This document shows, piece after piece, positions 9,425 through 63,894 of a stretch of DNA of 64,000 nt. Under the pieces are notes generated by a model that did not search any database, was not told the DNA's origin, and worked only from the letters and a program-made list of their open reading frames with translations. Made by a program: the position numbers and the translations under genes. Source of the stretch: an uncultured bacterium (GTDB lineage Bacteria; Acidobacteriota; HRBIN11; JAKEFK01); NCBI GenBank assembly GCA_963777505.1, contig CAVZQN010000004.1:1216001-1280000 (forward strand), in the 5' to 3' direction. The first letter of the stretch is position 1, and each line of letters opens with the position of its first letter.

Positions 9425-9500
9425 TATTACTCTCTTTTGATTTCAGACCAAGTTAATTAGAATATTTTTTAGAATTTAAAATTAGAAGAAATTCTATGCA

Positions 9501-10433: not shown

Positions 10434-10453
10434 AACGATTCCTCGATGAAGGT

Positions 10454-10487: not shown

Positions 10488-10502
10488 GATCATGATTAAA
10501 AA

Positions 10503-12089: not shown

Positions 12090-12101
12090 AAGATTTTCTC
12101 C

Positions 12102-12566: not shown

Positions 12567-12576
12567 CTCCTACTCA

Positions 12577-12978
12577 TTACTGACGAAAAATTACTGCAAT
12601 TAAGCTCGCGACACCAAGAATTGAAATTAGTGCCGCAACCAATGTTGCGAGAGAGAATTCCTGGTAGATGTATTGTTTCCTAAAATTCCGCATGTATTGC
12701 CAATTCTGGAGAGTGGCAAACAGAAGTGAAACCAACGCGATGGTGATCAAGAACATTGCGAAATATCGTGGTCCGAAAACTCGATGCACTGGTGGGTGTG
12801 TTCCGCTTTCATGTAGATACTGAAAAAATTTATAGATTGTGAATCCGAAACTGATTAATGATGCCGAAGTTCTGACCCACGCCATCAAGGTTCGCTCGTG
12901 AGCGAGCTGCGTACGATCCAATGCAAGTTGATTTGAATCTATTTTTTGCGCCGCAATTTCTTTGGAAGTGTCCGCCAT
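12577..12978 (-). CDS. DUF202/YidH-family membrane protein
   Basis: RTQLAHERTLMAWVRTSASLISFGF followed by TM helices. Confidence 0.9.
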   Translation of the reverse strand: MADTSKEIAAQKIDSNQLALDRTQLAHERTLMAWVRTSASLISFGFTIYKFFQYLHESGTHPPVHRVFGPRYFAMFLITIALVSLLFATLQNWQYMRNFRKQYIYQEFSLATLVAALISILGVASLIAVIFRQ

Positions 12979-13021
12979 CTAATTCGCCTCCACTTGAATT
13001 CGATATTTCAGAAACAAACGC

Positions 13022-13055
13022 AAGAAGGACCCAGGTTCAATCCCAGATCCTTTTT
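13022..13055 (-). terminator. Possible terminator after the upstream sulfatase
   Basis: Minus strand GGATCTGGG-ATTGAA-CCTGGGTCC (several G-U pairs) followed by TTCTT. Confidence 0.4.
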
Positions 13056-13075
13056 GCTAGCTATATTCGTTTAAA

Positions 13076-14635
13076 TTAGTTGCTGCTACCGTGAGGGTTT
13101 TCCATTTTCCTTTGAGCTTGCTCAAGAGCTTTATGCATACTCAGCGTGTCGGCGCCTTGAGATGGGGGAAACTCCATCATGCTTTTAAGATGCGCAGCAA
13201 TGATAGGCCCACCAGCTGTGGGCGCCCACAACTTTGAACCGAAGAACTTGCGGCCTATGTAACCCCATTCATGCGATTCAGGATCCATTTTTTCCAACGG
13301 GTCCATGCGTAGATTGAAAATGTATGGAACGCTTGGATAATACTTTTCATTCCACCAGCTTCCCTCTCGCTTCACTCCGATGTGCATCTTCCAGTTGCCA
13401 ACGCGGACTGCCATCAGGTCAGTTTCGTCATAGTAGAAAATTTCTTTTCGAGCTGATTTTTCCGATTTACCAGTCCAGTGATCAATGTTGTTGTAGCCGT
13501 CAAGATGAACCTTGTATGTGGTGTCACCCATCTTGTAACCTTTGAGCAACTTGTCTTTTAAATCTGGTAATCCTGCTGCCGCGGCAAGCGTAGCGAATAG
13601 GTCTTCATGGCTTTGGATTTCGTTCGAGACGCTTCCGGCCGGAATTTGTCCGGGCCAGCGAATTAAGCAAGGCACGCGTAGTCCGCCTTCCCATGTGGTA
13701 CCTTTTTCTCCACGGTATGGTGCATAGCCGCCGTCAGGCCATAGCATGAGCTCATTTCCGTTATCGGTTGTGTAAATGACAATTGTGTTGTCCGCGACGC
13801 CTAGATCTTCCAATTTCTTGAGCAACGCTCCGATCTGTTCATCGTGTTCGATCATCTTTGCACGGACAACATCTTCTTCCGCTCGTCCTTCATCAACTGC
13901 CATCTGAACGTACTTTTTCTGCGGATGCGAGAAGATGTGAATTGCAGTTGTGTTGAACCAACAAAAGAATGGTTTATCACCTTTGCCATTGCGATCCAGC
14001 CAGTTCAACGTATGATCAAGAACTTCGGAATCGAAAGTTTCCATACGTTTGCGAGTTAGCGGTCCGGTGTTTTCGATTTTTTGTTTGCCTACACGTCCGA
14101 ACTTCGGATCTTCCGATGGATCATCCTCATTCGTCGCCCACGCATGAAGTACGCCGCGTGGTCCGAACTTCTTCAAGTACTCAGGATTCTTCTGACCTGG
14201 ATAATCGAGTTCTTCCGGTTCTTCTTCTGCGTTGAGGTGATAGAGATTACCGAACCATTCATCAAATCCATGAACAGTTGGCAGAAATTCGTTACGATCG
14301 CCGAGGTGGTTTTTTCCAAATTGACTCGTCACATATCCTTGCGATTTAAGTACTTCTGCAAGAGTTGGATCACTCTTTTGAATCCCGCGCGTTGATCCAG
14401 GAATGCCGATCGTGGTCATTCCTGTGCGGACGGGAAATTGGCCCATGATAAATGCTGCACGTCCGGCAGTGCAGCTTGGTTGTGCGTAATGATCGGTGAA
14501 CAGGATACCTTCCTTGCCGACTTTGTCGATATTGGGAGTTTTACCCATCATCCCATGCGTATAAAGACCGACATTCCACGTACCAATGTCATCGCCAAAG
14601 ATTACGAGGATGTTCGGTTTGTCTGTTTTTGCCAT
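13076..14635 (-). CDS. Arylsulfatase (Cys-type, CTAGR)
   Basis: KPNILVIFGDDIG, SCTAGRAAFIMG and GKNHLG motifs; no signal peptide. Confidence 0.95.
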   Translation of the reverse strand: MAKTDKPNILVIFGDDIGTWNVGLYTHGMMGKTPNIDKVGKEGILFTDHYAQPSCTAGRAAFIMGQFPVRTGMTTIGIPGSTRGIQKSDPTLAEVLKSQGYVTSQFGKNHLGDRNEFLPTVHGFDEWFGNLYHLNAEEEPEELDYPGQKNPEYLKKFGPRGVLHAWATNEDDPSEDPKFGRVGKQKIENTGPLTRKRMETFDSEVLDHTLNWLDRNGKGDKPFFCWFNTTAIHIFSHPQKKYVQMAVDEGRAEEDVVRAKMIEHDEQIGALLKKLEDLGVADNTIVIYTTDNGNELMLWPDGGYAPYRGEKGTTWEGGLRVPCLIRWPGQIPAGSVSNEIQSHEDLFATLAAAAGLPDLKDKLLKGYKMGDTTYKVHLDGYNNIDHWTGKSEKSARKEIFYYDETDLMAVRVGNWKMHIGVKREGSWWNEKYYPSVPYIFNLRMDPLEKMDPESHEWGYIGRKFFGSKLWAPTAGGPIIAAHLKSMMEFPPSQGADTLSMHKALEQAQRKMENPHGSSN

Positions 14636-14710
14636 AAATTTTGACTCCTTATGCCAGATGTTTTGGCTCTTTCTGAATTATTTGTGGCGTTCTTTCATAG
14701 AATGCCTTTA

Positions 14711-15688
14711 TCATTTTTGTTTTGGACGAACGATGCAACGGATTCCAAGATGACATGTTGAAGTATCAATTGGTTGAGCCATGCGTGCGGCAGGCCGATA
14801 ACGCAAACAATAATTTGGTGCGCATAAATAGGAACCCCCTTTCATTACTTTGCGTGGGATTTTCACATTCGGTGTTCGCGGATCATAGCTCTTTTCGGGA
14901 TCACCAACTCTCGGATTGATTGCACCACAACAGGATTTAACGATCTGGTTATGTTCCTGATACCAATCCGTAGTCCATTCCCAAACATTTCCACCCATGT
15001 CATACAATCCGTATCCATTGGGTGGAAATGAACCAACTGGTGCAGTCCATTCGTAGCCATCCGATAAAAGATTTTCGTTTGGAAATTCACCTTGCCAGGT
15101 GTTTGCCATCATCTGGCCATTGGGAGAAGAATCATCGCCCCAGGTGTAAGTTGCACCTTCCAATCCACCGCGCGCAGCAAATTCCCACTCCGCTTCAGTC
15201 GGCAATTCCTTGCCTGCCCACTTTGCATATGCAATAGCATCGCTGAATGCAACGTGAACTACCGGATGATTCCCGAGTCCTTCAATCGAACTTTCGGGAC
15301 CGCGCGGATGACGCCAATCTGCACCCGGTATGTAAGTCCACCAATTGTATGGATTGCTTAAATCCACACGATGACTCGGTTTTTGAAATACAACGGACGC
15401 AGGTACCAGCATTTCTGGTAATGCACCCGGATAATCTTCAGCTTTTGGTGGACGCTCCGCAGATGTGACGCGACCGGTTTTTTCAATGAACAGGCTAAAT
15501 TGATCGTTGGTAATTGTGTGTTGGTCCATCCAGAATCCATCTACAACCACTTCATGAACCGGTGCTTCTTCGCGATAGTGATCATCCGAACCCATTTGAA
15601 ACTTGCCGCCAGGAATCCAGATCATGCCTTCAAATGGCGGCGCGCCTGCAACCTCCGTATCGATCTGTTTTTTTGAATGTTGCGTCAT
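14711..15688 (-). CDS. Formylglycine-generating enzyme (aerobic sulfatase maturase)
   Basis: LPTEAEWEFAARGG, NGYGLYDMGGNVWEW and KGGSYLCAPNYCLRYRPAAR with the two catalytic Cys. Confidence 0.95.
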   Translation of the reverse strand: MTQHSKKQIDTEVAGAPPFEGMIWIPGGKFQMGSDDHYREEAPVHEVVVDGFWMDQHTITNDQFSLFIEKTGRVTSAERPPKAEDYPGALPEMLVPASVVFQKPSHRVDLSNPYNWWTYIPGADWRHPRGPESSIEGLGNHPVVHVAFSDAIAYAKWAGKELPTEAEWEFAARGGLEGATYTWGDDSSPNGQMMANTWQGEFPNENLLSDGYEWTAPVGSFPPNGYGLYDMGGNVWEWTTDWYQEHNQIVKSCCGAINPRVGDPEKSYDPRTPNVKIPRKVMKGGSYLCAPNYCLRYRPAARMAQPIDTSTCHLGIRCIVRPKQK

Positions 15689-19183: not shown

Positions 19184-21297
19184 TTAAGTTGTATTTTCTT
19201 TTATTGAAGGCAAGTCGAGATGAAATGTTGCTCCATGATTAGGATTATTGGTCGCCCAAAGATCCCCACCATGTTCTCGAACAATCGATCGGCAAATTGA
19301 TAACCCTAATCCCAGGCCATGCTTTTTTGTCGTAAAAAACGGCGCAAAGACCTGATCCATGCTTTCCGATTGGATACCCGTTCCGGAATCTGAGATAGCA
19401 AGACGAACGGTATGATTTGATCCTAATTCTGTGCTTAGGTTTATTTTGCGCTCACTGGGATTAAATTCGTTCATTGCTTCGGTAGCGTTAACGATCAAAT
19501 TTAAGAGTACCTGCTGTAATTGAATTCGGTCACCTGACAATGCAGGAAGTCCGGCAGCCAGCCGTAATGAGACTGTCACTTCGTGGGTGATTAATTCACT
19601 ATAGGCTAAATCCAACACCTCGCGAGTGAGCTCATTTAGATCTAGCATTTGAAATTGAATTTCACCTTTTTTGATCAAGGGGCGTAAACGTTGAATTACC
19701 TTTCCTGCGCGCATTCCTTCTGCAATTAAATCATTTAGAGCCTCACGAATTTCTTCAAAATTGATTGGTTCTTTCGCAAGAAAAAATTCCATAGCTTGAG
19801 CATTACTCAAAATCGCTGTTAGAGGCTGATTCAATTCATGGGCTAATGCGCCGGATAATTGGCCTAACATGGATACGCGTGTAAGATGCGACAATTGCTG
19901 TCTCTGTTCCCGTGATTCTGATTCAATCCGTTTTTGTTCTGTAACATCCCGGATTGTAATAATCCAACAACGTTCTCCCTCAATTTGAATCGGTTCCATA
20001 GCCACAATCGTTTGTATATTGATGCCATAATTTGTTCGCATTTCAATTGGAATATTCCGCAATACTTGTGGCGTATCCTCAGAGTTTTCAATGTTTTTGT
20101 TATCTTCCAGTTTTTGTGAAAGAGTCTTGTCCAACATTTTCCGTCCCATCACTTCTTCGCGTGCAAAGCCAAAAAGAGCGATCCAGCGATCATTGACTTC
20201 AATGATTTTCCCATCATCGTGTGCAATTACCATCGCGTCCGGACTGGAAAGGAAAGCTTTACTGAATCGCTGTTCAGAGCTTCGAAGTGCACTCTCAGCA
20301 CGTCTTCTTTCCTCTAAAACCGCCGAGAGATAGATTAACGGAATCGAAGTGAGGACCAAAAACAATTGAATAGAAAGTGCAATTTGGTTTTCTGAATATG
20401 AAGCAAAAAGGCCTTGACCCCACCTTGCTTCTGAAATTGCGATTAACTCAACAATAAGAATTGATATGCTGATCCCAGGTACTCCAAAACGCACTGCAGC
20501 CCACATCAGAAATGGCAAAGGTGCGTATAAAACTACAGAAGGAGTAACAATCCGTGAGTTCATTCCACCGAATGCAAAAATGCTAACACTTAACAATCCG
20601 ACGACAAGCAAAATGATTTCAAGATAATTCCAAACAGAATGTTTTCTAAACCAGTGTGTTCGTTCTGTAGTCCAGGATAATATCACCGGCACTATAGTGA
20701 GTGTGGCCAGAACATTGGAGAAAAATCTCATGCGCCATAGCTTGCCAATAGCTCTCTTGACCATATCCATTCAATTTGACTAAAGCGCTATCTAGAAATG
20801 TAGAAAGGAACGTGCCTAAAAATACGGCGCAGATCAAAAAGACAGAAACACTTTGAAAGCTATTTAGCTTAAATTCATTTCCACAAAATCGGCGTATTAG
20901 ACCAGCGCCGATCACCGCTTCGAAACAGTTGCTTACAAACCAGCTAAGGATCATTGGAATCGGCACATTACTTTGAAGTTCTGCGGCGAGATGGGCTGGA
21001 AGTGCGGCGAGAATTAAAAACCACCAGGTTCTGGTTGGGGCAAGTAATAGTGCAGCCAATAAAATGGCATTAGGGGGCCATAATGTCGAAACGGGATTCG
21101 GTTGAAATGTCAGAAGAAATCCGACTCTTGCACCAATGTAGTAGCCCAGACGATGCAAGCAGAATTGCAAATATTATCCGGTTTGTCGACAAAAACGCAT
21201 CCTGAGCGTATAGACTGCGAATCGAAAATCGGCTCAAACCGTCAGATGAAATACTTGATTCGGCTTGCGAAGAATTCCATTCCATAGAACCTCGCAA
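19184..21297 (-). CDS. MASE1-PAS histidine kinase (FixL/NodV-like), frameshifted near 21150 and 20745
   Basis: MASE1 (LWPPNAILLA; LPFLMWAAVRFG), PAS, H-box LAHELNQPL and FFTTKKHGLGLGL are spread over three overlapping ORFs. Confidence 0.85.
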
Positions 21298-33767: not shown

Positions 33768-36155
33768 TTGATTAACCAGACGATCTCGCACTACACCATT
33801 CTAAAAAAGCTTGGTGGCGGAGGAATGGGAGTTGTATATGAAGCTGAGGATCTGAGCCTCAAACGTCATGTCGCACTCAAATTCCTTCCCGAAGCAGTAG
33901 CAGATACTCCGGAAACGCTGGAGCGCTTCCGGCGGGAGGCTCAATCAGCATCGGCACTGAATCATCCAAACATCTGCACGATATATGAAATTGGTGAACA
34001 TGAAGGTCGTCCTTTCATTGCTATGGAGCTCATGAAGGGTAAGACCTTGAAGCATGCGATTGATGGAAAACCAATGGAGATCGATACCGTGCTCGGATCT
34101 CGGTACACAAATTGCAGATGCTCTCGATACGGCGCATGCGGAGAGAATCATTCATCGTGACATCAAGCCGGCGAATATTTTCGTCACGGAACGGGGTCAG
34201 GCAAAGCTGCTGGATTTTGGATTGGCAAAACAGGGAGCAGCAGCGACTGGAAACACTGAAATGCCAACTGCCAGTACTCCGGCACAACTGACGCAAGCCG
34301 GTTCGACGATGGGAACCGTTGCGTACATGTCTCCGGAACAAGGCCGCGGCAGAGTGCTCGATCAGCGCACCGATCTTTTTTCTTTTGGGGTGGTACTTTA
34401 TGAAATGGTTACAGGTACTCAGCCATTTGTCGGTCAGAGTACCGGAGAAGTGCTCGAAGCCATTTTTTCAAAGCAGCCTACAGCTCCAGTCCGTCTAAAT
34501 CCGAATATTCCTGCTGAACTTGGAACGTATCATATATAAAGCGCTCGAAAAGGATCCCAATCTGCGGTATCAAAGCGCAGCGGAAATTCGAACGGACCTT
34601 CAACGATTGCGAAGAGATTCCTCTGTTGCTTCTAGCGTGGCATCACCTTCTGTAGAAAAAGATACTGCCAAAGTCCACTCTACAAAAAAGTCATCCAAAC
34701 TCTGGATTGGAATCGCTGCTGCAGTTGCAGTAATTGTGTTGCTTGGCGTTTTCTGGTTTGGCCGAAAATCGAAAACGTCAGCACAAGCCGGACAGATTTC
34801 AATTGCTGTACTGCCCTTTGTCAACATGAGTCCAGATAAAAATCAGGAATATTTTTCGGATGGTCTTGCTGAACAACTGCTGAACGATCTAGCTCGAACT
34901 CCTGGATTGCGCGTGATCGCGAGAACTTCTTCGTTTCAGTTTAAAGGTAAGACTGAAGATCTTCGCGTGATTGGTCAAAAGCTGGATGTTGCAAACATCC
35001 TGGAGGGAAGTGTTCGCAAAGAGGGGAACAAGGTGCGGATTACGGCGCAGTTAATTCAGACTTCCGATGGATCTCACTTATGGAGTGATACATACGACCG
35101 CGAGTTGAATGATGTTTTTGCCGTACAGGATGATATTGCACGATCGGTCGCGGACGCGTTGAAAATTACGTTGCTCGGTGAAAAGAAAAGTTCTGTAAAG
35201 TCACAAAACGCGGAAGCATATAACGCTTATCTCCAGGGTCGATACTTCTTACGACGCGCCGGGGCAAGGAGGACTCTGCAAAAGGCGATTGGCTACTTTG
35301 AACAGTCGATTCAACTCGATCCTGACTATGCACCCGCCTGGGTAGGCTTAGCAGGAGTTCACTTTCGGCAGATAGCTTCCGGCCACATATCCTATAGTAG
35401 AAGGACAGGAAAAAATGCGGAACGAAGTGGAAAAGGCGCTGAGACTGGATCCAAATCTCGCTGAGGCGCATTCACTTCTGGGGCGGGTCAAATTGAATTA
35501 CGACTGGGATTGGATGGCAGCAGATGCGTCATTTAAGAAGGCGCTGGAACTTGAACCCGGTAACGCAAGTGCGTTCAGCAACGCTGGAGTCCATGCAGGT
35601 ACGCTTGGCCGATTTGATGAGGCTGCTGAATTGACGCGCAGAGCGATAGAACTCGATCCGCTGAACCCGGGTAACTACTCGAATCTCGCAAGCTGGCACC
35701 ACTACGCAGGCCGACTGAAGGAGGCGGAGGCGGCGTATCGTAAAGCCCTGGAGCTAAACCCAGAGTTTCCCTGGCATACACTTCCGAATTGGTCTTATCT
35801 ACTTGGAGCAGTCGAATCCGCAAGCGGCACTTGCCGAAATGGAGCGCGAAACAGAGCCAGTTTGGCGTGGTATGGGGCTGGCTCTGGGCAGTTTTGCCGC
35901 TGGTAAGAAAAAGGAGGCAGACGCGTTATTAGCCAGAGTACATTGAAGATTTATCAGACTACTGCGGCTTTTCAGATCGCTGAGATTTATGCTTTCCGTG
36001 GTGAGACAGATAAAGCATTCGAATGGCTCGAACGCGCTTATCAACAACGTGACGGCGGTCTTGCTGAAATGAAAGGCGATCCGTTGCTTCGCAACATTGA
36101 GAAGGACCCGCGTTACACCGCCTTCATGAAAAAAATGAAACTGCCTTTGGATTAA
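33768..36155 (+). CDS. Ser/Thr protein kinase with TM, TolB-N-like and TPR domains (several frameshifts)
   Basis: [45 protein letters not shown]...EYFSDGL and TPR repeats, spread over 5-6 overlapping frames. Confidence 0.88.
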
Positions 36156-52630: not shown

Positions 52631-53407
52631 ATGTCAACGAAGTCCGACAATTACAGTCCAAAGCTAATGGTCATCCTCTCGCGCGCTAACCGTTCCATCG
52701 CGGATTTTCTGGAAAGCGGGCTAGTCATTTACGGAATTCCGTCATCTGATTTTTGGATTCTGGAAGTTCTTTTGCATAAGGGGCCTTTAGCAATCTCCGC
52801 GATTGCACAAAAAGCGCCTGTGACAAACGCTGCTGCAAAGAAAACCGTGAATCGCCTGAAACATCGTGGGCTCGTGAAGTCTGATGGTGAAATGTTCGAA
52901 TTGACTGATGACGGTCGCAAGTTAGTTGCCGGAATTTACGAACAGCACAAAAAAGATATTGAGACTGTGTTGGGCAGTCTTTCTATTGCTCAGCGCAGAC
53001 AACTTCACGAAATGCTGAAAAAAATCGGGTTGGAAGCCGATCGTCTTCAGCGTGAACGTTCCAAAAAAAGAAGAACTGGACTCGCCCCATGGCAGCTAAG
53101 ACGAGCTACAGAATACATTTCTGAGCACTTTGCACAGCCGGCTCGCATGAAAGAAATTGCAAAACAAACAGGGTTGTCAGAATCGCACTTCGGTCGCGCC
53201 TTCAAATTATCAATGGGTATTTCCCCGCATAAGTGGCAGATCAAGGTGCGAATTTCTGAAGCGCAGGAATTGCTGAAAGAAGGCAAGCTTTCCCTTGCAG
53301 AAATTGCCAATGTTACAGGTTTCGCTGAACAGAGTCATTTCACACGCGTCTTCAAAGAAATCCTTGGCGTCTCGCCTGGAATATGGCAGCGTAAGAATCG
53401 TGCATAA
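52631..53407 (+). CDS. MarR-like plus AraC-HTH fusion regulator
   Basis: N-terminal SDFWILEVLLHKGPL...LTDDGR (MarR-like). C-terminal GLAPWQLRRA...GLSESHFGRAFK...GFAEQSHFTRVFK (AraC). Confidence 0.88.
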   Translation: MSTKSDNYSPKLMVILSRANRSIADFLESGLVIYGIPSSDFWILEVLLHKGPLAISAIAQKAPVTNAAAKKTVNRLKHRGLVKSDGEMFELTDDGRKLVAGIYEQHKKDIETVLGSLSIAQRRQLHEMLKKIGLEADRLQRERSKKRRTGLAPWQLRRATEYISEHFAQPARMKEIAKQTGLSESHFGRAFKLSMGISPHKWQIKVRISEAQELLKEGKLSLAEIANVTGFAEQSHFTRVFKEILGVSPGIWQRKNRA

Positions 53408-53433
53408 TTTTTCACCTGCTTTTTTAAAACGCC

Positions 53434-53468
53434 GATTATTTTCAATAAACCGCTGAAAAATTCAATAC
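53434..53468 (+). promoter_or_regulatory. 35-bp tandem CAATA element, copy 2
   Basis: 33 of 35 bases identical to 52200-52234. Confidence 0.55.
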
Positions 53469-53590
53469 CAGAAAAATGCCCCACTCTCTTCTTCTGAATA
53501 TGCAATAGCAATTTCTAATTTATTCGAATTCTGATGAAGCAGGCAATAATAACGCTACAAACTTTAGCGATACTGATGAGAAAATAAAAG

Positions 53591-53692
53591 CAAGCATCGA
53601 TAAGAAGGGAACAATTAAGATTGATCCTTTGGAAGCTCTAGATTCCGCGAGCGCTGACTATTTTTCGCAAGAATTGAAAACGCTGAATTGAT
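53591..53692 (+). repeat. 102-bp direct repeat, copy 2 (orphan 3' gene fragment)
   Basis: Matches 49784-49885 at 101 of 102 positions. Confidence 0.95.
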
Positions 53693-53742
53693 AGCGCGAA
53701 TGCAGCACGAGCCTTACCCATTTTTTCCCGCGACAATATTTT

Positions 53743-54750
53743 TCATAAGATTATGTTGTTTTGTGGATTCAAAACCGGAGGTAAATCGGTTTCCCCAAGC
53801 ATTTCTCTTATATCAATTTCAACAGCCCGGCTCATTTGTGAGATGGGGACATCATTGGCACTCCCTTCAAATGGATTCTCCGTGCTTTCTCCTACCTGCT
53901 CTAATGAGGTAAATACCCAGGAGATCAAAACGCCAAAAGGTATAACCAACCACACCATGTTTCCTTCCAAAAATCCTGTCACACCATCATTGAGGTTATC
54001 GAATTCCGCGAGTAGGCCAAATGGAAGAAGAATGCAAAACAATTTCACAAATAGCCCGTTAATAGTGGCATACTGCCGGGGATAGGGAAAATTCTTAATT
54101 CTCTCGCTCCGGCCCTGTTGCTGAGAAAAGTCCCTCAAGGCACTATGCAGATCCAGGAATCTGAACTCACTCAATGATTCGTCCTCGCGAAATTTTTTCA
54201 GTGTATTGCTTTGCAAACTCAATAATTGAGTTGCCTTGTTTTTAGCGGATAAAATAGATGTTATCTCTACCTGCGAAATGTATTTTATTAATTCTTGCTC
54301 CAATGGCGTTTCCATTTCAGGAATTGAATAATGTCGTTTGTACTCCTTGTTATAACCTTTATTTACATTTTCCCAATTCCTGGGGGCCCTCAGCTGATAA
54401 CGTAAGGCGGTAAGCCATGCCAAATGGCGATTAATGAGCTCCCGAGATTGATCCGCGTTACCAAGGAAATCTCTGCACATCATGACCCACGATCGGCTGG
54501 CGCTCATCGTTGCTCCCCATATTTGCCTCGCCTCCCAGGTGCGATTGTATGTTTCCCGGTTCCTGAAAGTAATAATGAAAGCTGTTGCTGTACCCAGCAA
54601 ACCAATAATCGAAAAGGGAATGGCCAGCCATGTAAGATCAAACAGCTGGTAAAGTATGGTGGGAATAGTATTCAAGACCAAAAGCCAAAAAATGTTTCTT
54701 CTAGTCCAGAAAAGAAACTCACCAAGGTTGTATGTTTTTCCGGCGTGCAT
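53743..54750 (-). CDS. Bestrophin-family channel
   Basis: FRNRETYNRTWEARQIWG, ERIKNFPYP and ENPFEGSANDVP motifs. Confidence 0.9.
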   Translation of the reverse strand: MHAGKTYNLGEFLFWTRRNIFWLLVLNTIPTILYQLFDLTWLAIPFSIIGLLGTATAFIITFRNRETYNRTWEARQIWGATMSASRSWVMMCRDFLGNADQSRELINRHLAWLTALRYQLRAPRNWENVNKGYNKEYKRHYSIPEMETPLEQELIKYISQVEITSILSAKNKATQLLSLQSNTLKKFREDESLSEFRFLDLHSALRDFSQQQGRSERIKNFPYPRQYATINGLFVKLFCILLPFGLLAEFDNLNDGVTGFLEGNMVWLVIPFGVLISWVFTSLEQVGESTENPFEGSANDVPISQMSRAVEIDIREMLGETDLPPVLNPQNNIIL

Positions 54751-54840
54751 GACTTTGTTTTTATAAAGTTGAAGTATCTAGACTACATTTCAATCTACAG
54801 CAACCATTTTAGCCTGAATTTCAAGCGTACAACCGATCGT

Positions 54841-56202
54841 TTATTTGTTCATAAAGAATTTCTTGAGTTCGGCCTTTGTTTCATCTGGGCGTTGTTCCAT
54901 GAGCCAGTGTCCGGTGTCCTCAAATTTTATTGAAATAACATTTTCGGCCGCCATTTTAGCTTGAATTTCAAGCGCTCCACCCATTGCTTTGTCGCCTTCA
55001 ATCGTCAGTACCGGCATTTGCAATTTATTCACAACAAATTTGTGGTTATCTTCCGCATCCACAGTGTTAAAGAGTTTAAACATTTCAAAGGCTGCCCGCA
55101 TGGCACCTTCTTGTGCATAGGAGGTTGCATAAAGCTGACGATCTGCTTCAGAAAAAGTCTCAGGATGTGGCGAAAGACTTTGCCAAAAATGTTCCAGGAA
55201 AATGCGTTCACGTCCTTTAACTAATTCGAGTGCAATCGGACTGTTAACATAATGAAAATGCCACAACGCTGGATTCGTATAAACTTTCTCCCAAACATCA
55301 CCAATGCCTGGAATCGGTGCTTCAAGAAGCGCAAGTTTTTCAACTTCATTCGGATACTGGGCTGCGTACGCATACGCTACCATTAGGCCAATGTCATGTC
55401 CGACAAGATCGATTTTTTCATAACCAAGACTTTTTACCAGTTCACGAATGTCAGTTGCTAATGTCTTTTTGTCATATCCCGTTGTTGGGCGAGAAGAATC
55501 GCCAAGCCCACGCATATCCGGTGCAATAATCGTGTATTCCTTGCCAAATTCATCAAAAAGAGGAATCCACATATGTGAAGTATCGCCAAATCCGTGAATC
55601 AAAACGATTACTTTTTTACCATTTCCAGCTCTTAAATAATGAATTTTTGCCCCATTAACATTTGCAAACTGGGATTGATAATTTTTACTTTTAGCAACCT
55701 CGTTCAATTTAGCGTTCACATATTCTGTGCCAGTTGGACCATAACCACTAATCTGCAGAACGACCGGCTGATCACCAGTTCGTGCGTAATGTGGAATGTT
55801 TGGAGATTCGGTGTAAAAACTGCCTGGTGTCAGAGCTTTAAGTTTCTTTTCATCGAACTGTGTCCCATAGCCAATAAACCATGTTCCCGATATGACAGTG
55901 GCAACTCGATCATCAGGATGATCATGGGCTTCGATATTCGTTTTAGCTGGAACTGTTAGTTGAATTGTATATAAACCAGGTTTAGTGGGTTCGCCTTTTA
56001 AGATGCGAGTTTGAATTCCGCTTACTCCAGAAGTTCCCGCACTTGCGCCAATTTGCTTCATCTGATCAATTTCCTTCGGAGTTAAGCGTTGGTCCGCATT
56101 GACTTCCTGCCCTTCGCTAATTGCAAATAAAGATAGCGAAGAAAAAAGAATAATGAACAATCGCCATGTGAATTTCGTAAAGCATCTCCCTATTGTTCTC
56201 AT
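54841..56202 (-). CDS. Secreted cupin plus alpha/beta-hydrolase (epoxide-hydrolase-like) fusion
   Basis: Signal peptide, cupin (AHDHPDDR...GSFYTESPNIPHYA), then HGFG, GHDIG nucleophile and GHWLMEQ. Confidence 0.85.
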   Translation of the reverse strand: MRTIGRCFTKFTWRLFIILFSSLSLFAISEGQEVNADQRLTPKEIDQMKQIGASAGTSGVSGIQTRILKGEPTKPGLYTIQLTVPAKTNIEAHDHPDDRVATVISGTWFIGYGTQFDEKKLKALTPGSFYTESPNIPHYARTGDQPVVLQISGYGPTGTEYVNAKLNEVAKSKNYQSQFANVNGAKIHYLRAGNGKKVIVLIHGFGDTSHMWIPLFDEFGKEYTIIAPDMRGLGDSSRPTTGYDKKTLATDIRELVKSLGYEKIDLVGHDIGLMVAYAYAAQYPNEVEKLALLEAPIPGIGDVWEKVYTNPALWHFHYVNSPIALELVKGRERIFLEHFWQSLSPHPETFSEADRQLYATSYAQEGAMRAAFEMFKLFNTVDAEDNHKFVVNKLQMPVLTIEGDKAMGGALEIQAKMAAENVISIKFEDTGHWLMEQRPDETKAELKKFFMNK

Positions 56203-56700
56203 CAGAATTTCTCCTTTTTGATTTACGTTGTTAAGAGTTTATAAAGGATGAATGTAAGGGTAGTAGCAAAACATGGATCGACGCACAGAGTATCCTGTTT
56301 ACACTTATTGCCTTTGTCATTTGTATTGCCATGTCATTATGGGACGCGACACTTTCTGGGAAAGAATCTCACCAACGTAGCGCGCGTAAGGCTGAAAGCT
56401 GGCGTTATCTAAACGATGCGGCTGTCTCGGAATAACAGTCTTCAAGATAAAGTATTGCAAAAACTAAATCAGACTGCACTCCAACAAATTACCATTTACT
56501 TAACGCAGCTCACGCATTGCCGGAGTGAAAAGAAGATTGGGAGGGAGCCGAACAACGCACAGGAGGACGAGCTGACTCGACGATATGTCTTTGACTGCCC
56601 ATTTCATAAAAATTAAATTGCTTCCCAGACACTCCAAGCAGGGCAAAAGCAATGTACGCAGTTTCCTTCATATTAAATAGAGCCGTCTCCGTTCTCGTTG

Positions 56701-57996
56701 CTAGCGCAGTGATTTGAATGCTGCGCGTAGTTCTTGCACGAGCAGCTCGGGTTGTTCCCACGCGGCGAAATGGCCGCCTTTGTCGAGTTTGTTGTAATAG
56801 ATAAGTTTTGGATACGCCTTCTCGGTCCAACTCTTTGGGGCTTGATAGAGCTCGTCGGGAAAGGCGCTTACCGCTGTGGGGATTGGCACGTTTTTCGGTG
56901 CAAAGAAAGCGAGCTTGCTTTCCCAATAGAGACGAGCTGAAGAGACCGTCGTATTCGTCAGCCAATAGAGCGTGATGTTGTCCAGGATGTCATCCCGTGT
57001 AAGTCCCTCACGTTGACCGTCAAATACGCGCGCCATGAGTGCCAAACTAGTCGCGTCATGGTCAAGCATCCATGCGGCCATGCCGACCGGCGAATCCGCG
57101 ATCCCGTAGAGCGTTTGGGGACGGTTCGCCATTTCGTTCGCGTAGCCAAGGCCATGCTTATAGAAAAATGCGAGCTGATCGTACGCGTGCTTTTCGTCGG
57201 CCGACAGACCGGACGGAGCCGGCGCATCGGCAGAAGCCGCCGTGTTGATGTCGTTTGGCACAGTGGCAGGCATGTTTGTATGGATGCCGATCAATTCCGG
57301 AGCTCCCAGCAGGGACATCTGTTCCGTGACCGCATTCCCCCAATCGCCGCCTTGCGCCACGAATCGTGTGTATCCCAGGCGCTTCATCAACACTATCCAC
57401 GCACGTGCGATGCGGATTGGATCCCATCCGGTCGTGGAAGGCTTGCCCGAAAATCCGTAGCCCGGCAGTGACGGAATCACGACATCGAAAGCGTCCGATG
57501 CGCTCCCGCCGTCTTCTGCCGGATTCGTCAGCGGATCGATGATCTTTAACTGCTCGATGATCGAACCGGGCCATCCGTGCGTGACGATAATCGGCAACGC
57601 ATTTTTCTGTTTCGAACGAACGTGAATGAAATGAATATCCACCCCATCGATCTGCGTGATGAATTGTGGAAGGGCGTTCAGTTTCGCCTCGCATTTGTGC
57701 CAATCATAATCTGTTGCCCAATAGCGAGCGAGTTTCTGAATCGTCGCGAGCTGTACGCCCTGCGACTGATCCGCGACAGTCTCCTTGTCTGGCCAACGTG
57801 TAGCAGCGATGCGCTTGCGGAGGTCATCGAGATCAGCTTGCGGAGCGTTGAAATGGAAAGGGCGTATTGCGGACACACCACTGGTAGATTCGCTTTTTTG
57901 TTGTTGTGTGAACACCATTTCTATTGGTAAAAAAAGCATAGTTACCGAAAAGCATATAACGATCAGTTTCAAAACCGTTTGCATCTTGAATATCAT
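56701..57996 (-). CDS. Epoxide hydrolase (EHN / microsomal-like) with signal peptide
   Basis: IRPF...LDDLRKRI...RWP (EHN), HGWPGS, PSLPGYGFS, QGGDWG and GGHFAAWEQP motifs; AGGAG RBS. Confidence 0.93.
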   Translation of the reverse strand: MIFKMQTVLKLIVICFSVTMLFLPIEMVFTQQQKSESTSGVSAIRPFHFNAPQADLDDLRKRIAATRWPDKETVADQSQGVQLATIQKLARYWATDYDWHKCEAKLNALPQFITQIDGVDIHFIHVRSKQKNALPIIVTHGWPGSIIEQLKIIDPLTNPAEDGGSASDAFDVVIPSLPGYGFSGKPSTTGWDPIRIARAWIVLMKRLGYTRFVAQGGDWGNAVTEQMSLLGAPELIGIHTNMPATVPNDINTAASADAPAPSGLSADEKHAYDQLAFFYKHGLGYANEMANRPQTLYGIADSPVGMAAWMLDHDATSLALMARVFDGQREGLTRDDILDNITLYWLTNTTVSSARLYWESKLAFFAPKNVPIPTAVSAFPDELYQAPKSWTEKAYPKLIYYNKLDKGGHFAAWEQPELLVQELRAAFKSLR

Positions 57997-58140
57997 TAGT
58001 AACTCCTAAGAATTCTAATTTCTTAATCATTCAGTTTTCGTAACAATCATTGCAAAAAAGCGAAACGCTGCGGTATCGAATGTTCGCCCACTATATATAG
58101 AGCACCCGTATTCCCCATCGTAGGTGAAATAAGGGATTTT

Positions 58141-58164
58141 GATATTGGACTAAAGTCCAATATC
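58141..58164. promoter_or_regulatory. DosR-box-like perfect palindrome GATATTGGACT-AA-AGTCCAATATC
   Basis: Perfect 11-bp arms in the divergent region between the epoxide hydrolase and the catalase-like gene. Confidence 0.7.
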
Positions 58165-58470
58165 CATTCCAAGCAAGCTGGCCACAAAATACATACATCA
58201 CCCTATACAGATGTTAGTTTCGACGCAAATGGACTCAGTACTAGTTGGCAGGGAACTACATTGATCGTATCTTTATTTTAAGAACTTACCTTGGTGATCA
58301 ATGTCATTCGTATGGCACCAAAAGCAGCTTCAATTCAGACGATCCGATGAACCCCGAGGTTCTTACATACAAATCGAGAGAACATTATGAAAATGCGTGG
58401 GGACGCCTCGAGCTTTTCCGAACCGATGAGCGAGGCCGAGATGTCGTTCGCCTGAAAGGAGTTGGCAACA

Positions 58471-59630
58471 ATGACCCAGAAATTTGTGCGTTACAGTCCG
58501 GACGTTGAACAGGAGGAGCCCGATTTCGAACAAACCCTGCAGCAGGTCCTCGATGACATGAAACAGCACATGCGCGGCTCGCTCAAAACCGAGGGGATCG
58601 GGCTTGTGGTGCGCAACGCCCACGCCAAGGGTTACGGTCTTGCCCGGGGAGAATTTGAAATCCTCAGTGGAATGCCGAACGAATATTCGCAGGGCATCTA
58701 CGCCAAACCGGGACGCCACGAAGCCATGGTTCGTTTCTCAAACGGGACCAATCACGTTGGCGGGGATCGGTTCCTTGGACCGATCACCGGCATCGGGCTG
58801 AAGATTTTCGGAATCGAGGGGAAAACTCTTCTGGAAGATGAGCCGGACAGTCACACCTTCGACTATGCGCTGATCAACCACCCGGTCTTCTTCGTCAACA
58901 CGCTCGCGCATTATGTCTTCATTCAGACTTTGTTTGCCAACCTTGGCCTACCGCCGCCAGCGAACCTTACGCCGGAGGAAAGGCAGGCGGCACTCCACCG
59001 CGTTCTCTACAACTTTGTGACGGGCAAGGGCACGCTGCCTCCGGAGCAGTGGGCCTGGGAGGAACTCGGCGCCTTCCTGCATCTCGCGCAAACCAAGCCC
59101 GTGAATCTCCTCCTCTCGACGTATTGGACTATGGGTGCGGTGCGGCATGGCGACTACGTCGCAAAGGTTCGTGTGGCCCCGGTTCAATCGTTCGCCGACC
59201 GCGTTGAACAGCGAGCTCTCGATCTCACTTCTGCCGAACAAGTCTTCCGGCCGGCGCTCGTAGCGGAGCTGCGCAAGCGACCCTACGAGTTCGACATCCA
59301 GGTCCAGCTCTGCACGGATCTGGCTCAAATGCCAGTTGAGAAAACGACAGTACGTTGGCCGAGAGCCTCTCGCCGTATGTGACCGTCGCGAAATTGCGGC
59401 TGCCGCAACAGGATATCGGCGGGGAAGACAATTTCGAGAAGATGGACAAGACTTCGATGGCCGCCTGGCGCGTCACGGAGCAGCACCGTCCGCTCGGCAA
59501 CATCATGCGTTCGCGCAAGGAGGTCTACCGGCAGTCATCGATTCTTCGTCACAAAGCAAACAACCAGGAGCGTAAGGAGCCGAAGAACCTGGCTGAAGTT
59601 TTCGGTGAGCAGATGGCGGCCACCGGGTAG
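58471..59630 (+). CDS. Small catalase-related heme protein (candidate fatty-acid-hydroperoxide-metabolising), frameshifted near 59360
   Basis: AAGGAG RBS. Distal His in RNAHAKGYG, VRFSNG, GLKIFG, distal Asn in LINHPVFF, proximal Tyr in HRPLGNIMRSRKEVY. Confidence 0.85.
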
Positions 59631-59729
59631 CGCATAGCTGACGGACGAGCACCATACGATGAATCAAGCCATCTATGGCAAGCAATCGTTAGTCATTGCG
59701 TTGCCGAGCATTGTTGAAAGGAGACGATT

Positions 59730-61608
59730 ATGCCTGAAAGAACCACTGCCGCGCGTGCCGCGACAGAAAACAGCAAGACCTACGACCAAGTACACCTATG
59801 ACTATGACCACCTCCCGCCCCTGGCGATGGTAGGTGCTGTGACTGAAGCAGAAGCGTTTTCCGCCCGGCCGGATTGGATTCATCTGGTCGCGCGCTCGGC
59901 ACTGAAGATTCTAATCAACAGCATCATGATCGGAGTCAAAAACAAGGGCGGACAATATCGAATTCGTTCAACAAGTGCTCAAAAATATTCAGGCCGTCGC
60001 TCAGCAACTGAACGGCGAAGCTGGGCGTGACCTGAATAACGCAATTGCCATGGAGTTAGAGAAGCAGGGTTCGCCGACTACGCTGCCTCAATTGAAAGCG
60101 CTGCTGGAAGTTGTAATAGAGCCGTTGGCGCAGACGCTCAACCTTAAAACTTTGTTGGACATCGCTCGGATCGTTCAGCAGTTGGGATCTGTTTCCGGTC
60201 CCGCTTCCAGCCTCGAAGATTACAACCAGGTGTTTCAGTTCATTTCATTGCCGGCGGTCAGCCAGAATTTTCGAGAGGATTCGGAGTTTGCCGCCATGCG
60301 GGTGGCTGGGCCGAATCCGTTAACAATCGAGCGGATGAAAACGCTGGACGAGCGACTGCCGATTACTGATGAACAGTATCAGGCGGTGATGGGGACCCAA
60401 GACACGCTGAAGACGGCGCTGGCTGACGGACGGCTTTATCTAGCCGATTATTCCGCGTTTGACGGAGCCGTAAACGGCAGTTTTCCGGCGGGACAGAAGT
60501 TCAACTATGCGCCACTGGCTTTGTTTGCGGTCCCGCGGGCGGACGATCGTTGGTTCCTGTGGCGATTCAGTGCGGGCCGCGGCCAGGCCCGGATAACCCG
60601 ATCTTCCTGCCGCGAGACGGCGATAACTGGTTGATGGCCAAAACCATAGTTCAGGTTGCGGATACCAATGTTCATCAAGCCGCTAGCCATCTTGGACGGA
60701 CGCATCTGTTCATCGAACCGTTCGTTATTGCTACGCACAACCAGTTGTCGCGCACGCATCCGCTCTTTCTTTTGCTCACGCCGCACTTTGAAGGCACGCT
60801 CGCAATCAACGAAGGTGCCTTGAGTCTGCTCGCGTCGCGAGGCCTTGTAGATTTGTTGCTGGCAAGTTCCATAGATCAGTCGCGAGTGTTCGCCGTGAAA
60901 GCCGCGCAGAGCTATCAGCTGAATCTCAACACTTCCACGCTGCCACAGACGCTGGCTCAACGCGGCGTGGACGACGCGAGCCGCTTGCCGGACTACCCCT
61001 ATCGGGACGATGCGCTGCTGCTCTGGGGTGCAATCAATCAATGGGTCGAAGACTACGTGAATCACTACTATGCGTCGGATGCAGCGGTGCAGGGCGATGC
61101 CGAGGTGCAGAATTGGGTGGCTGAGCTGGTCGCGCACGATGGCGGCAGATTGAACAACATCGGCGCGGCGAACAGGATCAGCAAGCGTACGGAATTGGTC
61201 GACTTGATCACGCTGATCTGTTTTACCGCCAGCGCGCAGCATGCTGCAGTGAACTTTCCGCAGGCTCCGCTTATGAGCTATCTGCCTGCGACGCCACCGG
61301 CGGGCTATTCGCCGTTGTCGTCCCTGACGCAGGAAGGCTTCAGTGAAAATGACTTCTTGAAATTCCTGCCACCATTGGATATTGCAAAGGCGCTGTTGGA
61401 CATTTTGTATCTATTGAGCTCGGTGTATTACACGAGACTGGGCGATTACGGCAACAATTACTTCACCGACCCGGTCATTCAGAATCACCTGGCGAAGTTC
61501 CAGCAAGAGTTGATCAAGATCGAAGCGGAGATCAATGAGCGGAACAAGACGCGGACGCCGTACGAATTTCTGCTGCCATCGAAGATTCCGCAGAGCATCA
61601 ATATTTGA
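59730..61608 (+). CDS. Lipoxygenase (about 3 frameshifts, near 59788, 59950 and 60538)
   Basis: AAGGAG RBS before ATG 59730. YDYDHLPPLAMV, FAAMRVAGPNP, WLMAK, HQAASHLGRTHL, HPLFLLLTPHF, AQHAAVNFPQ and C-terminal IPQSINI supply all iron ligands. Confidence 0.93.
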
Positions 61609-61700
61609 ACTATCCTCCGGCAGCGAATAATAGAGGAAGCTTTGATTAGGTATGAATCGGGAAGGTCGGGCATTGAATACCTTCGTAGGAACACGCAGTT

Positions 61701-61791
61701 GGAAGAGGACCCTGTCCCCGCCTAAGATTCGCAGCTCGATATTTTTGGGCCGAATGGGTTCGCATCTTAAGCGGGGACAGGGTCCCCTTCC
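61701..61791. repeat. Long imperfect inverted repeat (REP/MITE-like or terminator)
   Basis: GGAAGAGGACCCTGTCCCCGCCTAAGAT pairs with ATCTTAAGCGGGGACAGGGTCCCCTTCC over 28 bp with 2 mismatches. Confidence 0.7.
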
Positions 61792-61924
61792 TGACTGCAC
61801 GTTTCCCATGAGGTGAGTGCCAGCGTCCCATGACTTAATCAGAGCTTCCTGGAGTTATTACCCAACGCCGTAGGAATCGAGGTTAGCAGGCAAAGCGCTT
61901 GCAGATGCCAGGTCAGCCAGAAGG

Positions 61925-62995
61925 ATGGACACGATGCTCGCGTATCGACTGCTGAAAGCGCAGACTCAACCAGAGTTTCAGGACGTGCCGGATCCGCACG
62001 CAGGACCTGGTCAGGTGGTAGTTAAAGTCGCCGGCTCCGGCCTTTGCCATACCGATTTCACGGTCATCTCCGCGACCGAAACTATTGGAAGGACGATCCG
62101 CCGCCTTTCACGCTCGGGCACGAGATCGCTGGATGGGTGGAAGAGGTAGGAAGCGGAGTGAAGGGGTTTCAACGTGGCGATGCAGTCGCCGTGAACCCAT
62201 CATGGGCCAGTTGCGGACGCTGTCACATGTGCCGGTCAGGGGAAGAAAACTATTGCCTCTATCAGAAGGCGATTCGAGCTCCGGCGTCGGTTACGACGGA
62301 GGACACGCGCCATACGTCCTCGTTCCTGAGGCGAGATTTCTCGTGCCCATCGGCGACCTCGACCCGGTTGAGGCGGCGCCGCTTACCGATGCCGGACTAA
62401 CGACATACACCGCCATCAAGTCAGCGCTTCCTGGGATCTATCCGGGCAGCACCGCAGTCGTGATCGGCATCGGCGGGTTGGGATTCTACGCCATTCAATT
62501 TCTTACGGCAGCTGACTGGCGCACGAGTCGTCGCGGTCGTCTCGCGCGAATCCAAAGTGAAGCTGGCCCGGGAGTACGGCGCCGACGACGTCGTCACGAG
62601 TGGTCCTGACGCGGCGGACCAGATTCGCGGAGCTCACCGGCGGGATCGGGGCGGCCTTCGTCCTGGATTGTGTCGGGTGAAACGCAGACGCTTGCTACCG
62701 GGGTCGCCGCTCTGTCGTGGCGTGGTCGCCTGGCGATGGTCGGTGCGGGCGGTGGATCGATTCCGTTCGACTTCTTCAAGATGCCCCCGGGCGCGCAACT
62801 GGTGACGAGCTTGAACGGCGGGAGCTGTCGCGTTGAAGGAGGTTGTCGACATGGCGGCGTTGGGCCGGATCAAGATCTCTCGTGGATCGTTATCCCTCAA
62901 GCGCGGTAAAGCAGGCGTACGACGATTTCGAGCACGAACGTCTGGTCGGTCGAGCGGTCGTTATTCCCGAGGGAGTGGGAGCAGCCGCAGCGTAA
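61925..62995 (+). CDS. Zn-dependent alcohol dehydrogenase (multiple frameshifts)
   Basis: [22 protein letters not shown]...[20 protein letters not shown] and GRAVVIP motifs spread over several frames. Confidence 0.85.
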
Positions 62996-63029
62996 CGGCG
63001 AGATTCATGTACTGCAAGGAGGAAATGCA

Positions 63030-63894
63030 GTGAGTGCGCCCAAATCAGAATCAGAACGCCAACTGACTTTCGGGACGCTGAATGTACGCAACGAGAGGGC
63101 GGTCCTCTTCGTGGAAATTTCGGCTCCGCCCATGAATCTGGAAGGGCCCGAACTGGTTCGCGATCTCGTTTCGCTCATTCAGCAAGCGGAAGCTGACGAC
63201 ACCGTTCAAGTGCTCGTGTTCAAGAGCGCTGACCCGGATTACTTTATTTCCCATGTCGATGTTACGCGGATCAAAGAGAATCGAGCACGCCGCGGCGAAG
63301 CTGAACGGTGACGAATCAATAGGGCAACTGTATTGGCATCTGAGCGCCAGCCGCCTCGTCTCGATCGCGCAAATCGAAGGTCGGGTGCGCGGTGTGGGCA
63401 GCGAGTTTGTACTTGCGTGTGACATGCGTTTCGCCGCCCGTGAATCAGCCATCTTTGGTCAATTCGAACCCTCCTTTGGCGTGATTCCGGGCGCAGGTGG
63501 CGCCCAACATCTCACGCGGCTGATGGGCCGAGGCCGCTCGCTCGAAGTGATGTTGAGCGCACAAGACTACAACGCGGATTTAGCCGAACGGTATGGTTGG
63601 ATCAATCGCGCGTTACCGGCTGATGAGATCGACCAGTTCGTCAGCTCGCTGGCTCATCGGATCGGGAAGTTTCCGGCTGCCGGCCGCGCTGTGGTCAAGG
63701 AGCGAGTAAATGCAATCGCGCTTCCGACCGTTGAGGACATCCGTCGCGATTCGGATCTCTTCCTTGAGGGCACGCGCACGAATGAGTTCCTGGAACTCAC
63801 GAAGGCAGCGATGAGGCGCGGGTTCCAGACGAGAGACGGGGAGATAGATTTGGCTCGGTTGGTGGGAGAAATCAACGAACACCGTATTGGGTAA
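63030..63894 (+). CDS. Enoyl-CoA hydratase/isomerase family protein, frameshifted near 63280
   Basis: APPMNL, FKSADPDYFISHVD, GRVRGVGSEFVLACDMRFA and QFEPSFGVIPGAGG motifs. Confidence 0.9.

Follow-up and report, generated by a model that had tools for sequence, protein, structure and literature searches.

A 64,000-nucleotide (nt) stretch of DNA from an uncultured bacterium (contig CAVZQN010000004.1, positions 1,216,001 to 1,280,000; hereafter the window, whose own numbering is used below) carries a gene for a small catalase-fold haem protein (CAT) and, directly behind it, a gene for a lipoxygenase (LOX) resembling LoxA of Pseudomonas aeruginosa. The best single explanation for this pair, to which we give roughly even chances from what the sequences suggest, is that CAT consumes the fatty-acid hydroperoxides that the adjacent LOX would make. 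The gene set, the fold of CAT, the catalytic residues, the spacing of the two genes and the repeated adjacency of LOX to CAT in related genomes are observations, and are presented first.

The catalase-fold protein

CAT occupies 58471-59630 on the plus strand, starting at ATG 58471, and belongs to a 386-amino-acid (aa) class whose orthologues are 385-386 aa long. The window copy lies in two frames and was delimited with the help of orthologues. By comparison with P0001, an intact orthologue with 98% identity, the gene runs on in the second frame up to the RSRKEVY motif. VVRNAHAKG with the distal His, ALINHPVFF with the distal Asn and the RxxxY motif RSRKEVY can all be read in the open reading frames (ORFs) of the window, and the catalase-fold gene of ~385 aa with these residues that a first-pass annotation of this DNA had described is therefore present.

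Of 3288 candidate proteins, 1335 match the 303-aa first frame of CAT at E <= 0.001; among the best 120 of these, identity is 86-98% and nearly all are 385-386 aa long. One match bears the name 'catalase family protein [Acidobacteria bacterium]' and some orthologues carry a precomputed PF00199 label. Nevertheless, CAT is not a standard catalase. The PF00199 scores of P0001, P0035 and P0079 (18.7, 19.8 and 14.2 bits) are below the gathering cutoff of 25, the window fragment has no PF00199 match at E 0.01, and no NCBIfam model matches CAT (nor any of the LOX pieces). It is also only 386 aa long, and the window has a true catalase besides, a large-subunit katE-type gene lying 57 kb away (C-terminal two thirds, 1-1725, plus strand; PF00199 E 8.5e-98, with PF06628 and PF18011, including Catalase_C), which is the separate katE reported in the first-pass annotation.

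An alignment-based AlphaFold2 model of P0001 (pLDDT 94.2, pTM 0.93) was used for structural comparison, a single-sequence model being unusable (pLDDT 35.5). With a threshold of E <= 0.001, Foldseek returned 185 PDB matches, at the head of which stand catalases and 3e4w/3e4y, structures of the protein MAP-2744c from Mycobacterium avium subsp. paratuberculosis. The match probability was 1.0 against catalases and 3e4w, and TM was 0.68-0.70 (target-normalised) for 3e4w/3e4y. Residues R48, A50, H51, N136, R349 and Y353 are invariant across a 13-sequence alignment of the CAT clade. In a wider sample of 71 family sequences the haem residues are also largely kept (His in 68, Asn in 56, Arg in 70 and Tyr in 71), and the residue preceding the distal His varies (Ala 35, Val 17, Gln 8, Thr 3, Ser 3, Leu 3). 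A profile built from these 71 representatives finds 3e4w as its best PDB match (E 4e-15), followed by true catalases (2e-12 and weaker).

An exhaustive search of the CAT family yielded 3593 cluster representatives at E <= 0.001, 217 of them at E <= 1e-30. Extra domains were scanned in 16 longer proteins among 150 listed family members, revealing fusions to An_peroxidase (P0196, P0253), DyP (P0223, P0263), RoxA-like cytochrome c (P0213, P0259), patatin (P0188), MFS (P0136), SnoaL (P0228) and PEBP (P0175); no LOX fusion was present in these 16. P0213, P0259, P0188, P0196 and P0253 show 32-36% identity, and their fusion partners are oxygen- or peroxide-activating or lipid-releasing enzymes.

The lipoxygenase

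LOX (59730-61608, plus strand; ~625-aa class) starts at ATG 59730, 99 nt past the CAT stop, with an AAGGAG site ahead of it, and the two genes are probably co-transcribed. The window has no uninterrupted LOX frame, tblastn matches being spread over three frames. The C-terminal piece (60550-61608) matches PF00305 with E 5.4e-61, compared with 1.2e-64 for an intact orthologue. An intact orthologue of 622 aa from the related locus L014 matches bacterial LOX structures in the PDB (8x8f, E 8.5e-121; 4rpe, 6e-114; 4g32, 1.3e-113). When the 352-aa C-terminal piece is aligned to 4g32, two helix His, an H-x3-N pair and the terminal Ile fall on what we take to be the five iron-ligand positions of LoxA, and Ala falls on what is presumably its Coffa position. 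Both the spacing of about 100 bp and the complete set of iron ligands given in the first-pass annotation are thus borne out. The N-termini of LOX and of CAT, read by eye, are hydrophilic and without a signal peptide.

The LOX family is well populated (1583 matches at E <= 1e-10 among 8000 scored) and common in Acidobacteriota-type metagenome proteins, the next relatives being cyanobacterial at ~48% identity. Related genomes already annotate such genes as 'catalase family protein' and 'lipoxygenase family protein'.

Partners of CAT in related genomes

The CAT clade alignment was scanned against 185,579 species genomes, giving 421 pattern matches and 369 confirmed relatives. All locus counts below refer to the best 80 of these 369, with flanks of up to 10 kb in which neighbours were identified by tblastn, ORF clustering and Pfam. 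A close set of 19 loci encodes proteins 80-99% identical to CAT. Of these, 17 have Acidobacteriota-lineage titles, in agreement with the probable acidobacterial origin first proposed for the window; the remaining ones come from a Candidatus Manganitrophus chromosome and from a Verrucomicrobiia metagenome-assembled genome (MAG). The distant set of 61 loci, with 57-68% identity, comes mostly from Streptomyces and other actinomycetes.

Within 3 kb of CAT, the window-type LOX (LOX12) is found in four of the 19 close loci (L004, L005, L009, L014) and a second LOX-family protein (LOX39) in three (L002, L003, L019), and neither is found in any of the 61 distant loci. LOX12 also occurs 7.6 kb from CAT in L013. 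LOX39 matches PF00305 (E 1.6e-15) but is only 19-22% identical to LOX12, and keeps the three His ligands but not the Asn. The pairing of LOX with CAT, for which the first-pass annotation had called for a survey, thus recurs in seven close loci and is absent from the distant set. Two other genes are found more widely within the same distance: F1, encoding a ~208-aa protein (13/19 close and 44/61 distant loci), and a 456-aa DyP (12/19 and 44/61). F1 has no family by Pfam, even with relaxed thresholds, a PDB search gave chance-level matches only, and in a protein atlas it matches only 'hypothetical protein' clusters. The DyP matches that of Deinococcus radiodurans (8re2/8re3) with E 1e-187, and is of the C type. 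In Acidobacteriota and Arthrobacter the three genes run CAT-F1-DyP, and in Streptomyces CAT comes last (F1-DyP-CAT). Examples of the set are L006:10001-13287, L021:10001-13290 and Streptomyces loci at about 7900-11120, with F1 often in two tandem copies.

These partners tend to replace one another. LOX adjoins CAT in 5/6 close loci without F1 or DyP versus 2/13 with them (Fisher p = 0.0095, indicative only as the loci are related). A maximum-likelihood tree built from the first 299 CAT residues places the CATs of the window (LOX12), L001 (F1 and DyP) and L003 (LOX39) at distances of 0.017-0.023 substitutions per site from one another, and makes L014 (LOX12) the sister of L015 (F1 and DyP) with support 100/97. 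By eye, the first part of the CAT-LOX spacer in the window looks like the spacer between CAT and F1 in L008 and L015. Taken together, the loci suggest that the CAT gene is conserved and that the oxidative partners behind it are exchangeable. A CAT sub-specialised for LOX was considered and rejected, as CATs linked to LOX and those linked to DyP are intermingled in the tree at these short distances.

Other genes of the CAT islands encode 3-hydroxyacyl-CoA dehydrogenase, alpha/beta hydrolases, glyoxalase-fold, AhpC/TSA and DsbA-like proteins, and PAS histidine kinases and LuxR-type regulators flank many CAT loci. In the 15 distant DyP-less loci and L008, which were examined individually, most other neighbours are without a Pfam family. 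The gene upstream of CAT is AhpD/CMD-like in L028 and L049 and OsmC-like in L052, loci without LOX or DyP.

Two loci stand out by their taxonomy. In L009 (Candidatus Manganitrophus, CP114561.1) CAT is 90-94% and LOX 88% identical to the acidobacterial copies, and in L016 (the Verrucomicrobiia MAG) CAT is 82-86% identical. Both nest within the Acidobacteriota clade of the CAT tree (support 99/97 for L016), which suggests recent transfer between phyla or, for the MAG, mis-binning.

Neighbouring genes and palindromes

An epoxide hydrolase (EH) of microsomal type is encoded on the minus strand at 56701-57996 by an intact 431-aa ORF (PF06441 EHN, E 1.2e-39; alpha/beta hydrolase PF00561, E 8.8e-9) whose translation shows HGWP and GGDWG motifs. 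It is 73% identical to the EH of L005. EH lies within 3 kb of CAT in 5/19 close loci, namely in three of the four LOX12 loci and two of the 15 others, an association with LOX12 (p = 0.037, or 0.014 with the window added) that is again indicative only because of the relatedness of the loci. In all five EH is on the same strand as CAT, and in the window it is inverted. L014:6487-9323 holds two tandem EH paralogues upstream of the CAT-LOX pair, one with a twin-arginine-type leader (SRRRFLK). The N-terminus of the window EH is hydrophobic (signal or anchor).

Downstream of LOX, both on the plus strand like CAT and LOX and both as first described, are genes for a Zn-dependent medium-chain alcohol dehydrogenase (ADH; 61925 to about 62995, in at least five ORF pieces; PF08240 and NCBIfam ADH families) and for an enoyl-CoA hydratase/isomerase of the crotonase type (ECH; 63030-63894, in two frames; PF00378 E 9.9e-23, also recognised by NCBIfam). 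ADH is found near CAT in 8/19 close loci and ECH in 9/19. Comparison of the loci suggests that they are genes of the CAT island regardless of the presence of LOX, and not LOX-specific. Their earlier assignment to a LOX pathway, which the first-pass annotation itself called its weakest part, is therefore not upheld, since both accompany CAT with or without LOX.

The divergent arrangement of EH across a perfect palindrome was correctly described. The AT-rich divergent intergenic gap contains an inverted repeat at 58141-58164, GATATTGGACT-AA-AGTCCAATATC, with 11-nt arms that are 100% complementary and a 2-nt spacer. This candidate operator is unique in the window and was matched in 0/100 shuffles. 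However, its core was found in 0/80 related loci, and a role as conserved operator of the module is rejected for this reason. A different palindrome, GTATCGANCGATAC, precedes CAT in four loci, and in L005 it stands before three successive island genes (L005:6968-6981, 8432-8445 and 9901-9914; L007:1236-1249; L008:9899-9912; L015:5278-5291). A one-base variant was seen by eye in L004. The window lacks GTATCGANCGATAC, with 2-mismatch matches at chance level only. From its placement, this palindrome is likely to be an operator of the flanking two-component system.

Elsewhere in the window, the stretch 53000-56500 has a GC content of 41-42% against 54-62% on both flanks and may be a separately acquired segment. 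Encoded there are a protein of the bestrophin family (53743-54750) and an alpha/beta hydrolase of 453 aa (54841-56202), of which 78%-identical relatives occur within the CAT island of L008. At 10503-15688 (minus strand), two sulfatases, a formylglycine-generating enzyme and a transporter of the bile-acid/Na+ symporter family form a sulfatase maturation cluster unrelated to the CAT-LOX pair.

The proposed reaction

In the reaction that we favour, a cytoplasmic LoxA-like LOX would add O2 to a polyunsaturated acyl chain to give a hydroperoxide, probably with S specificity because of the Ala at the Coffa position. We infer that CAT acts on this product: through its Tyr-ligated haem and distal His/Asn it would consume the LOX hydroperoxide, either by rearrangement or cleavage (to an allene oxide, an epoxide or aldehydes) or by peroxidatic reduction. 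As CAT is missing the Thr that precedes the distal His in the coral allene oxide synthase (cAOS) and is akin to MAP-2744c, peroxidatic reduction is as likely as rearrangement. The ADH, the crotonase and the probably exported EH belong to a variable island of lipid- and electrophile-handling genes accompanying CAT, and may act further downstream on stable products, for example epoxy or aldehyde lipids.

Several lines of evidence argue for this reaction. The CAT-LOX spacing is tight and operon-like, and two unrelated LOX families have been recruited to the same CAT, mostly in loci without F1 or DyP. Members of the CAT family are fused to haem dioxygenase-type and phospholipase domains. Moreover, there are published precedents in the coral fusions, the Anabaena fusion and the Nostoc 10S-DOX with its separate lyase, which are compared below.

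A substantial body of observations weighs against it. Within the 10-kb flanks there is no LOX in any of the 61 loci with 57-68% identity, and the usual partners of CAT within 3 kb are F1 (57/80 loci) and the C-type DyP (56/80). The same CAT type serves three partner sets, hence nothing in CAT appears tuned to LOX. AhpD/CMD and OsmC, found upstream of CAT in some loci, are peroxide-defence families, so that a detoxifying role fits. The residue preceding the distal His is Ala in 13/13 clade sequences, whereas a 'Thr-His hallmark' is said, in the title of a 2016 work by Mashhadi et al. cited in PMC10813956, to mark hydroperoxide-converting catalase relatives. The family profile matches the coral enzyme (1u5u) with E 1.9e-4 and over profile positions 236-300 only. 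EH orthologues have Sec-like or twin-arginine (SRRRFLK) leaders, read by eye, and CAT and LOX do not. At >= 50% identity, ADH is present in 0/4 LOX12 loci (and ECH in 1/4). With its genes frameshifted in the window, the pathway may not work in this organism.

These points modify the original proposal in three respects. The unfused CAT-LOX oxylipin module survives as a tight pair that recurs in relatives, but LOX is not the usual partner of CAT. The kinship with the coral and cyanobacterial allene oxide synthase type does not survive, given Ala in place of Thr and a profile match to 1u5u of 2e-4 versus 4e-15 for MAP-2744c. On the grounds of this Ala-His pair and of the profile kinship to MAP-2744c and true catalases, sequence comparison places CAT outside the cAOS group, on a catalase-superfamily branch of its own. 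Finally, EH accompanies LOX12 in three of four loci, but its leaders would put it in another compartment. EH is probably exported and CAT and LOX are not, which makes a direct EH step on a short-lived epoxide doubtful.

Alternative readings

As the main alternative, CAT might instead be a general peroxide-defence companion, that is, an organic-hydroperoxide peroxidase or scavenger placed beside oxidising iron and haem enzymes. The genes around it would then form a co-regulated stress island against oxidised lipids and electrophiles, without a biosynthetic pathway or a dedicated oxylipin. We consider this unlikely but deserving of serious weight. It would account for DyP (56/80) and F1 (57/80) as dominant partners, for identical CAT types with different partners, and for the AhpC/TSA, DsbA-like thioredoxin, glyoxalase, OsmC and AhpD/CMD neighbours in other loci. 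The PAS histidine kinases and LuxR-type response regulators flanking many loci and the shared operator-like palindrome before several L005 island genes would also agree with co-regulation. The nearest solved relative, MAP-2744c, is reportedly an organic-hydroperoxide-dependent peroxidase with negligible catalase activity. However, a defence island has no need for a hydroperoxide-making LOX in its operon, and two unrelated LOX families have been recruited to one spot. LOX is present mainly where F1 and DyP are missing (5/6 vs 2/13), which looks like the swap of an upstream enzyme and not like an added stress gene. CAT would act on LOX products in a defence island too, and the difference from the favoured reaction lies mainly in purpose.

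Rather unlikely on present sequence comparisons, and broader in its consequences, is the possibility that CAT represents a new Ala-His subfamily of hydroperoxide-transforming haem enzymes heading a swappable cassette, in which all three partner sets would supply peroxidised lipids. Behind CATs that are at least 98% identical stands a LoxA-like LOX, a second, divergent LOX-like enzyme, or F1 together with a C-type DyP. If the cassette reading is true, soil bacteria would have an oxylipin or lipid-peroxide system that has gone unrecognised and has moved between Acidobacteriota, Nitrospirota and Verrucomicrobiota, and the orphan class-C DyPs would gain a physiological context.

The frameshifts of the window raise another question, namely whether the cluster is alive in this genome. 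Indels were placed by tblastn with intact orthologues and by DNA alignments to 4-6 orthologous loci per gene. About 12 single-base indels over 3.9 kb (59358 to 63289, all in plus-strand genes) affect CAT, LOX, ADH and ECH, confirming the frameshifts of the first-pass annotation. CAT has one base missing at about 59358, LOX has three indels (about 59782, 59949 and 60535) and ECH one inserted base at about 63289. ADH has about seven (about 62070, 62280, 62505, 62629, 62686, 62825 and 62876), a few of which may be misplaced as the alignments reach only 80-84% nucleotide identity, with at least five demanded by the ORF pattern. The frame-breaking indels lie mostly outside long homopolymers.

Breaks are also seen in other genes of the window. 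A MASE1/PAS histidine kinase (19184-21170, minus strand) is split into two overlapping ORFs at ~20.7 kb, and a Ser/Thr kinase (34054-35906, plus strand) begins at profile position 101 with TPR pieces in other ORFs. Frameshifts thus occur beyond the flagged region too, and splits such as that of the MASE1 kinase point to assembly-wide indel error. ORF coverage per 4-kb bin did not set the frameshifted stretch apart and was given up as a gauge of how dense the errors are. Overall, we regard the indels as probably consensus error, with decay considerably less likely.

That the frameshifts are real, and CAT, LOX, ADH and ECH recent pseudogenes of a dead cluster, is a quite unlikely reading. It would explain why about 12 frame-breaking indels are concentrated at 59358-63289 while the adjoining EH is intact, and it accords with the structural hypervariability of the region among close relatives and with an EH match of just 221 aa in the related locus L009. 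On the other hand, natural decay is expected to yield a spread of indel sizes biased to deletion, and here every indel is exactly one base, with 8 insertions and 4 deletions. The in-frame pieces are still 88-98% (CAT and LOX) and 75-95% (ADH) identical to intact orthologues, and the MASE1 kinase and other window genes are split too. In addition, MAGs with the label MFD, which we take to be long-read assemblies, are frequent among the closest relatives.

Finally, it is highly improbable that CAT is a small divergent H2O2 catalase with LOX adjacent by accident: it has the distal His/Asn and proximal Tyr/Arg of catalases, true catalases among its top Foldseek matches and a precomputed PF00199 label on some orthologues, but its Pfam score is below the gathering cutoff, it has Ala before the distal His where true catalases carry Val, it lacks the C-terminal domain, the window already has a katE, and a rare gene class adjoining CAT in 7/19 close loci is not incidental.

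Significance

To our knowledge, bacterial lipoxygenases are rare and their biological roles mostly unknown, and the only enzymes acting after LOX that we know to have been characterised are a few catalase-related proteins from cyanobacteria and corals. A CAT-LOX pair encoded by separate genes would extend bacterial oxylipin metabolism in both its chemistry and its taxonomic range. The present pair involves another branch of the catalase superfamily and is met repeatedly in Acidobacteriota that are abundant in soil. Its significance is tempered by the annotations that each of these genes already has in related genomes, and by the many indels of the window copy. Since this branch is usually tied to a C-type DyP, the locus also offers an experimental handle on two orphan haem-enzyme families. 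In a full-text literature search, mostly without subscription papers and supplements, neither an acidobacterial LOX pathway nor the CAT clade nor the CAT-F1-DyP triad was described, so that an earlier mention is possible. The text of a preprint surveying bacterial LOX (10.1101/2022.06.21.497025) contains neither 'Acidobacteri' nor 'catalase'.

Comparison with known systems

LoxA of P. aeruginosa (4g32, 4rpe, 5ir4) is secreted to the periplasm. The window LOX aligns with it over the whole length and shares its ligand motifs and the Coffa Ala, but has no signal peptide and is coupled to CAT. The DyP of D. radiodurans (DrDyP; 8re2, 8re3; class C/V) corresponds to the usual 456-aa companion of CAT (E 1e-187), although no such DyP is present in the window. 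The physiological substrates of DrDyP are stated to be unknown in its description (PMC10820274), and the words 'catalase', 'operon' and 'neighbo' are absent from the text of that paper.

MAP-2744c (33 kDa; 3e4w, 3e4y) is, like CAT, a minimal catalase core and is the best solved relative of CAT by both profile and fold. The two differ in that identity is only ~20% and CAT is ~80 residues longer.

The coral fusions of cAOS and LOX (Plexaura homomalla; 1u5u, 3dy5) offer a parallel in arrangement, with a small catalase core directly upstream of a LOX to which the window LOX is homologous (3dy5, E 4e-69). The cAOS residues T66, H67, N137 and Y353 are given in PMC5617202, and H67, N137 and Y353 there stand at nearly the same positions as H51, N136 and Y353 of CAT. 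However, CAT and LOX are separate genes in the bacterium, Ala replaces Thr, and the profile match has an E of 2e-4 over 65 residues.

In cyanobacteria, a catalase-LOX fusion of Anabaena yields an allylic epoxide (PMC11719350), and the 10S-DOX of Nostoc punctiforme works with a catalase-related hydroperoxide lyase that a separate gene encodes (PMC13049297). As proposed for CAT, a bacterial catalase-related protein thus acts on the hydroperoxide of a fused or neighbouring dioxygenase, and in Nostoc the two are likewise unfused. The cyanobacterial systems are likened to CAT by description and not by sequence, and they differ from the CAT clade in that its main partners are DyP and F1. The combination of a catalase-related enzyme with a fatty-acid dioxygenase, fused or separate, is therefore already known; what is new here is that it involves another branch of the catalase superfamily and another phylum.

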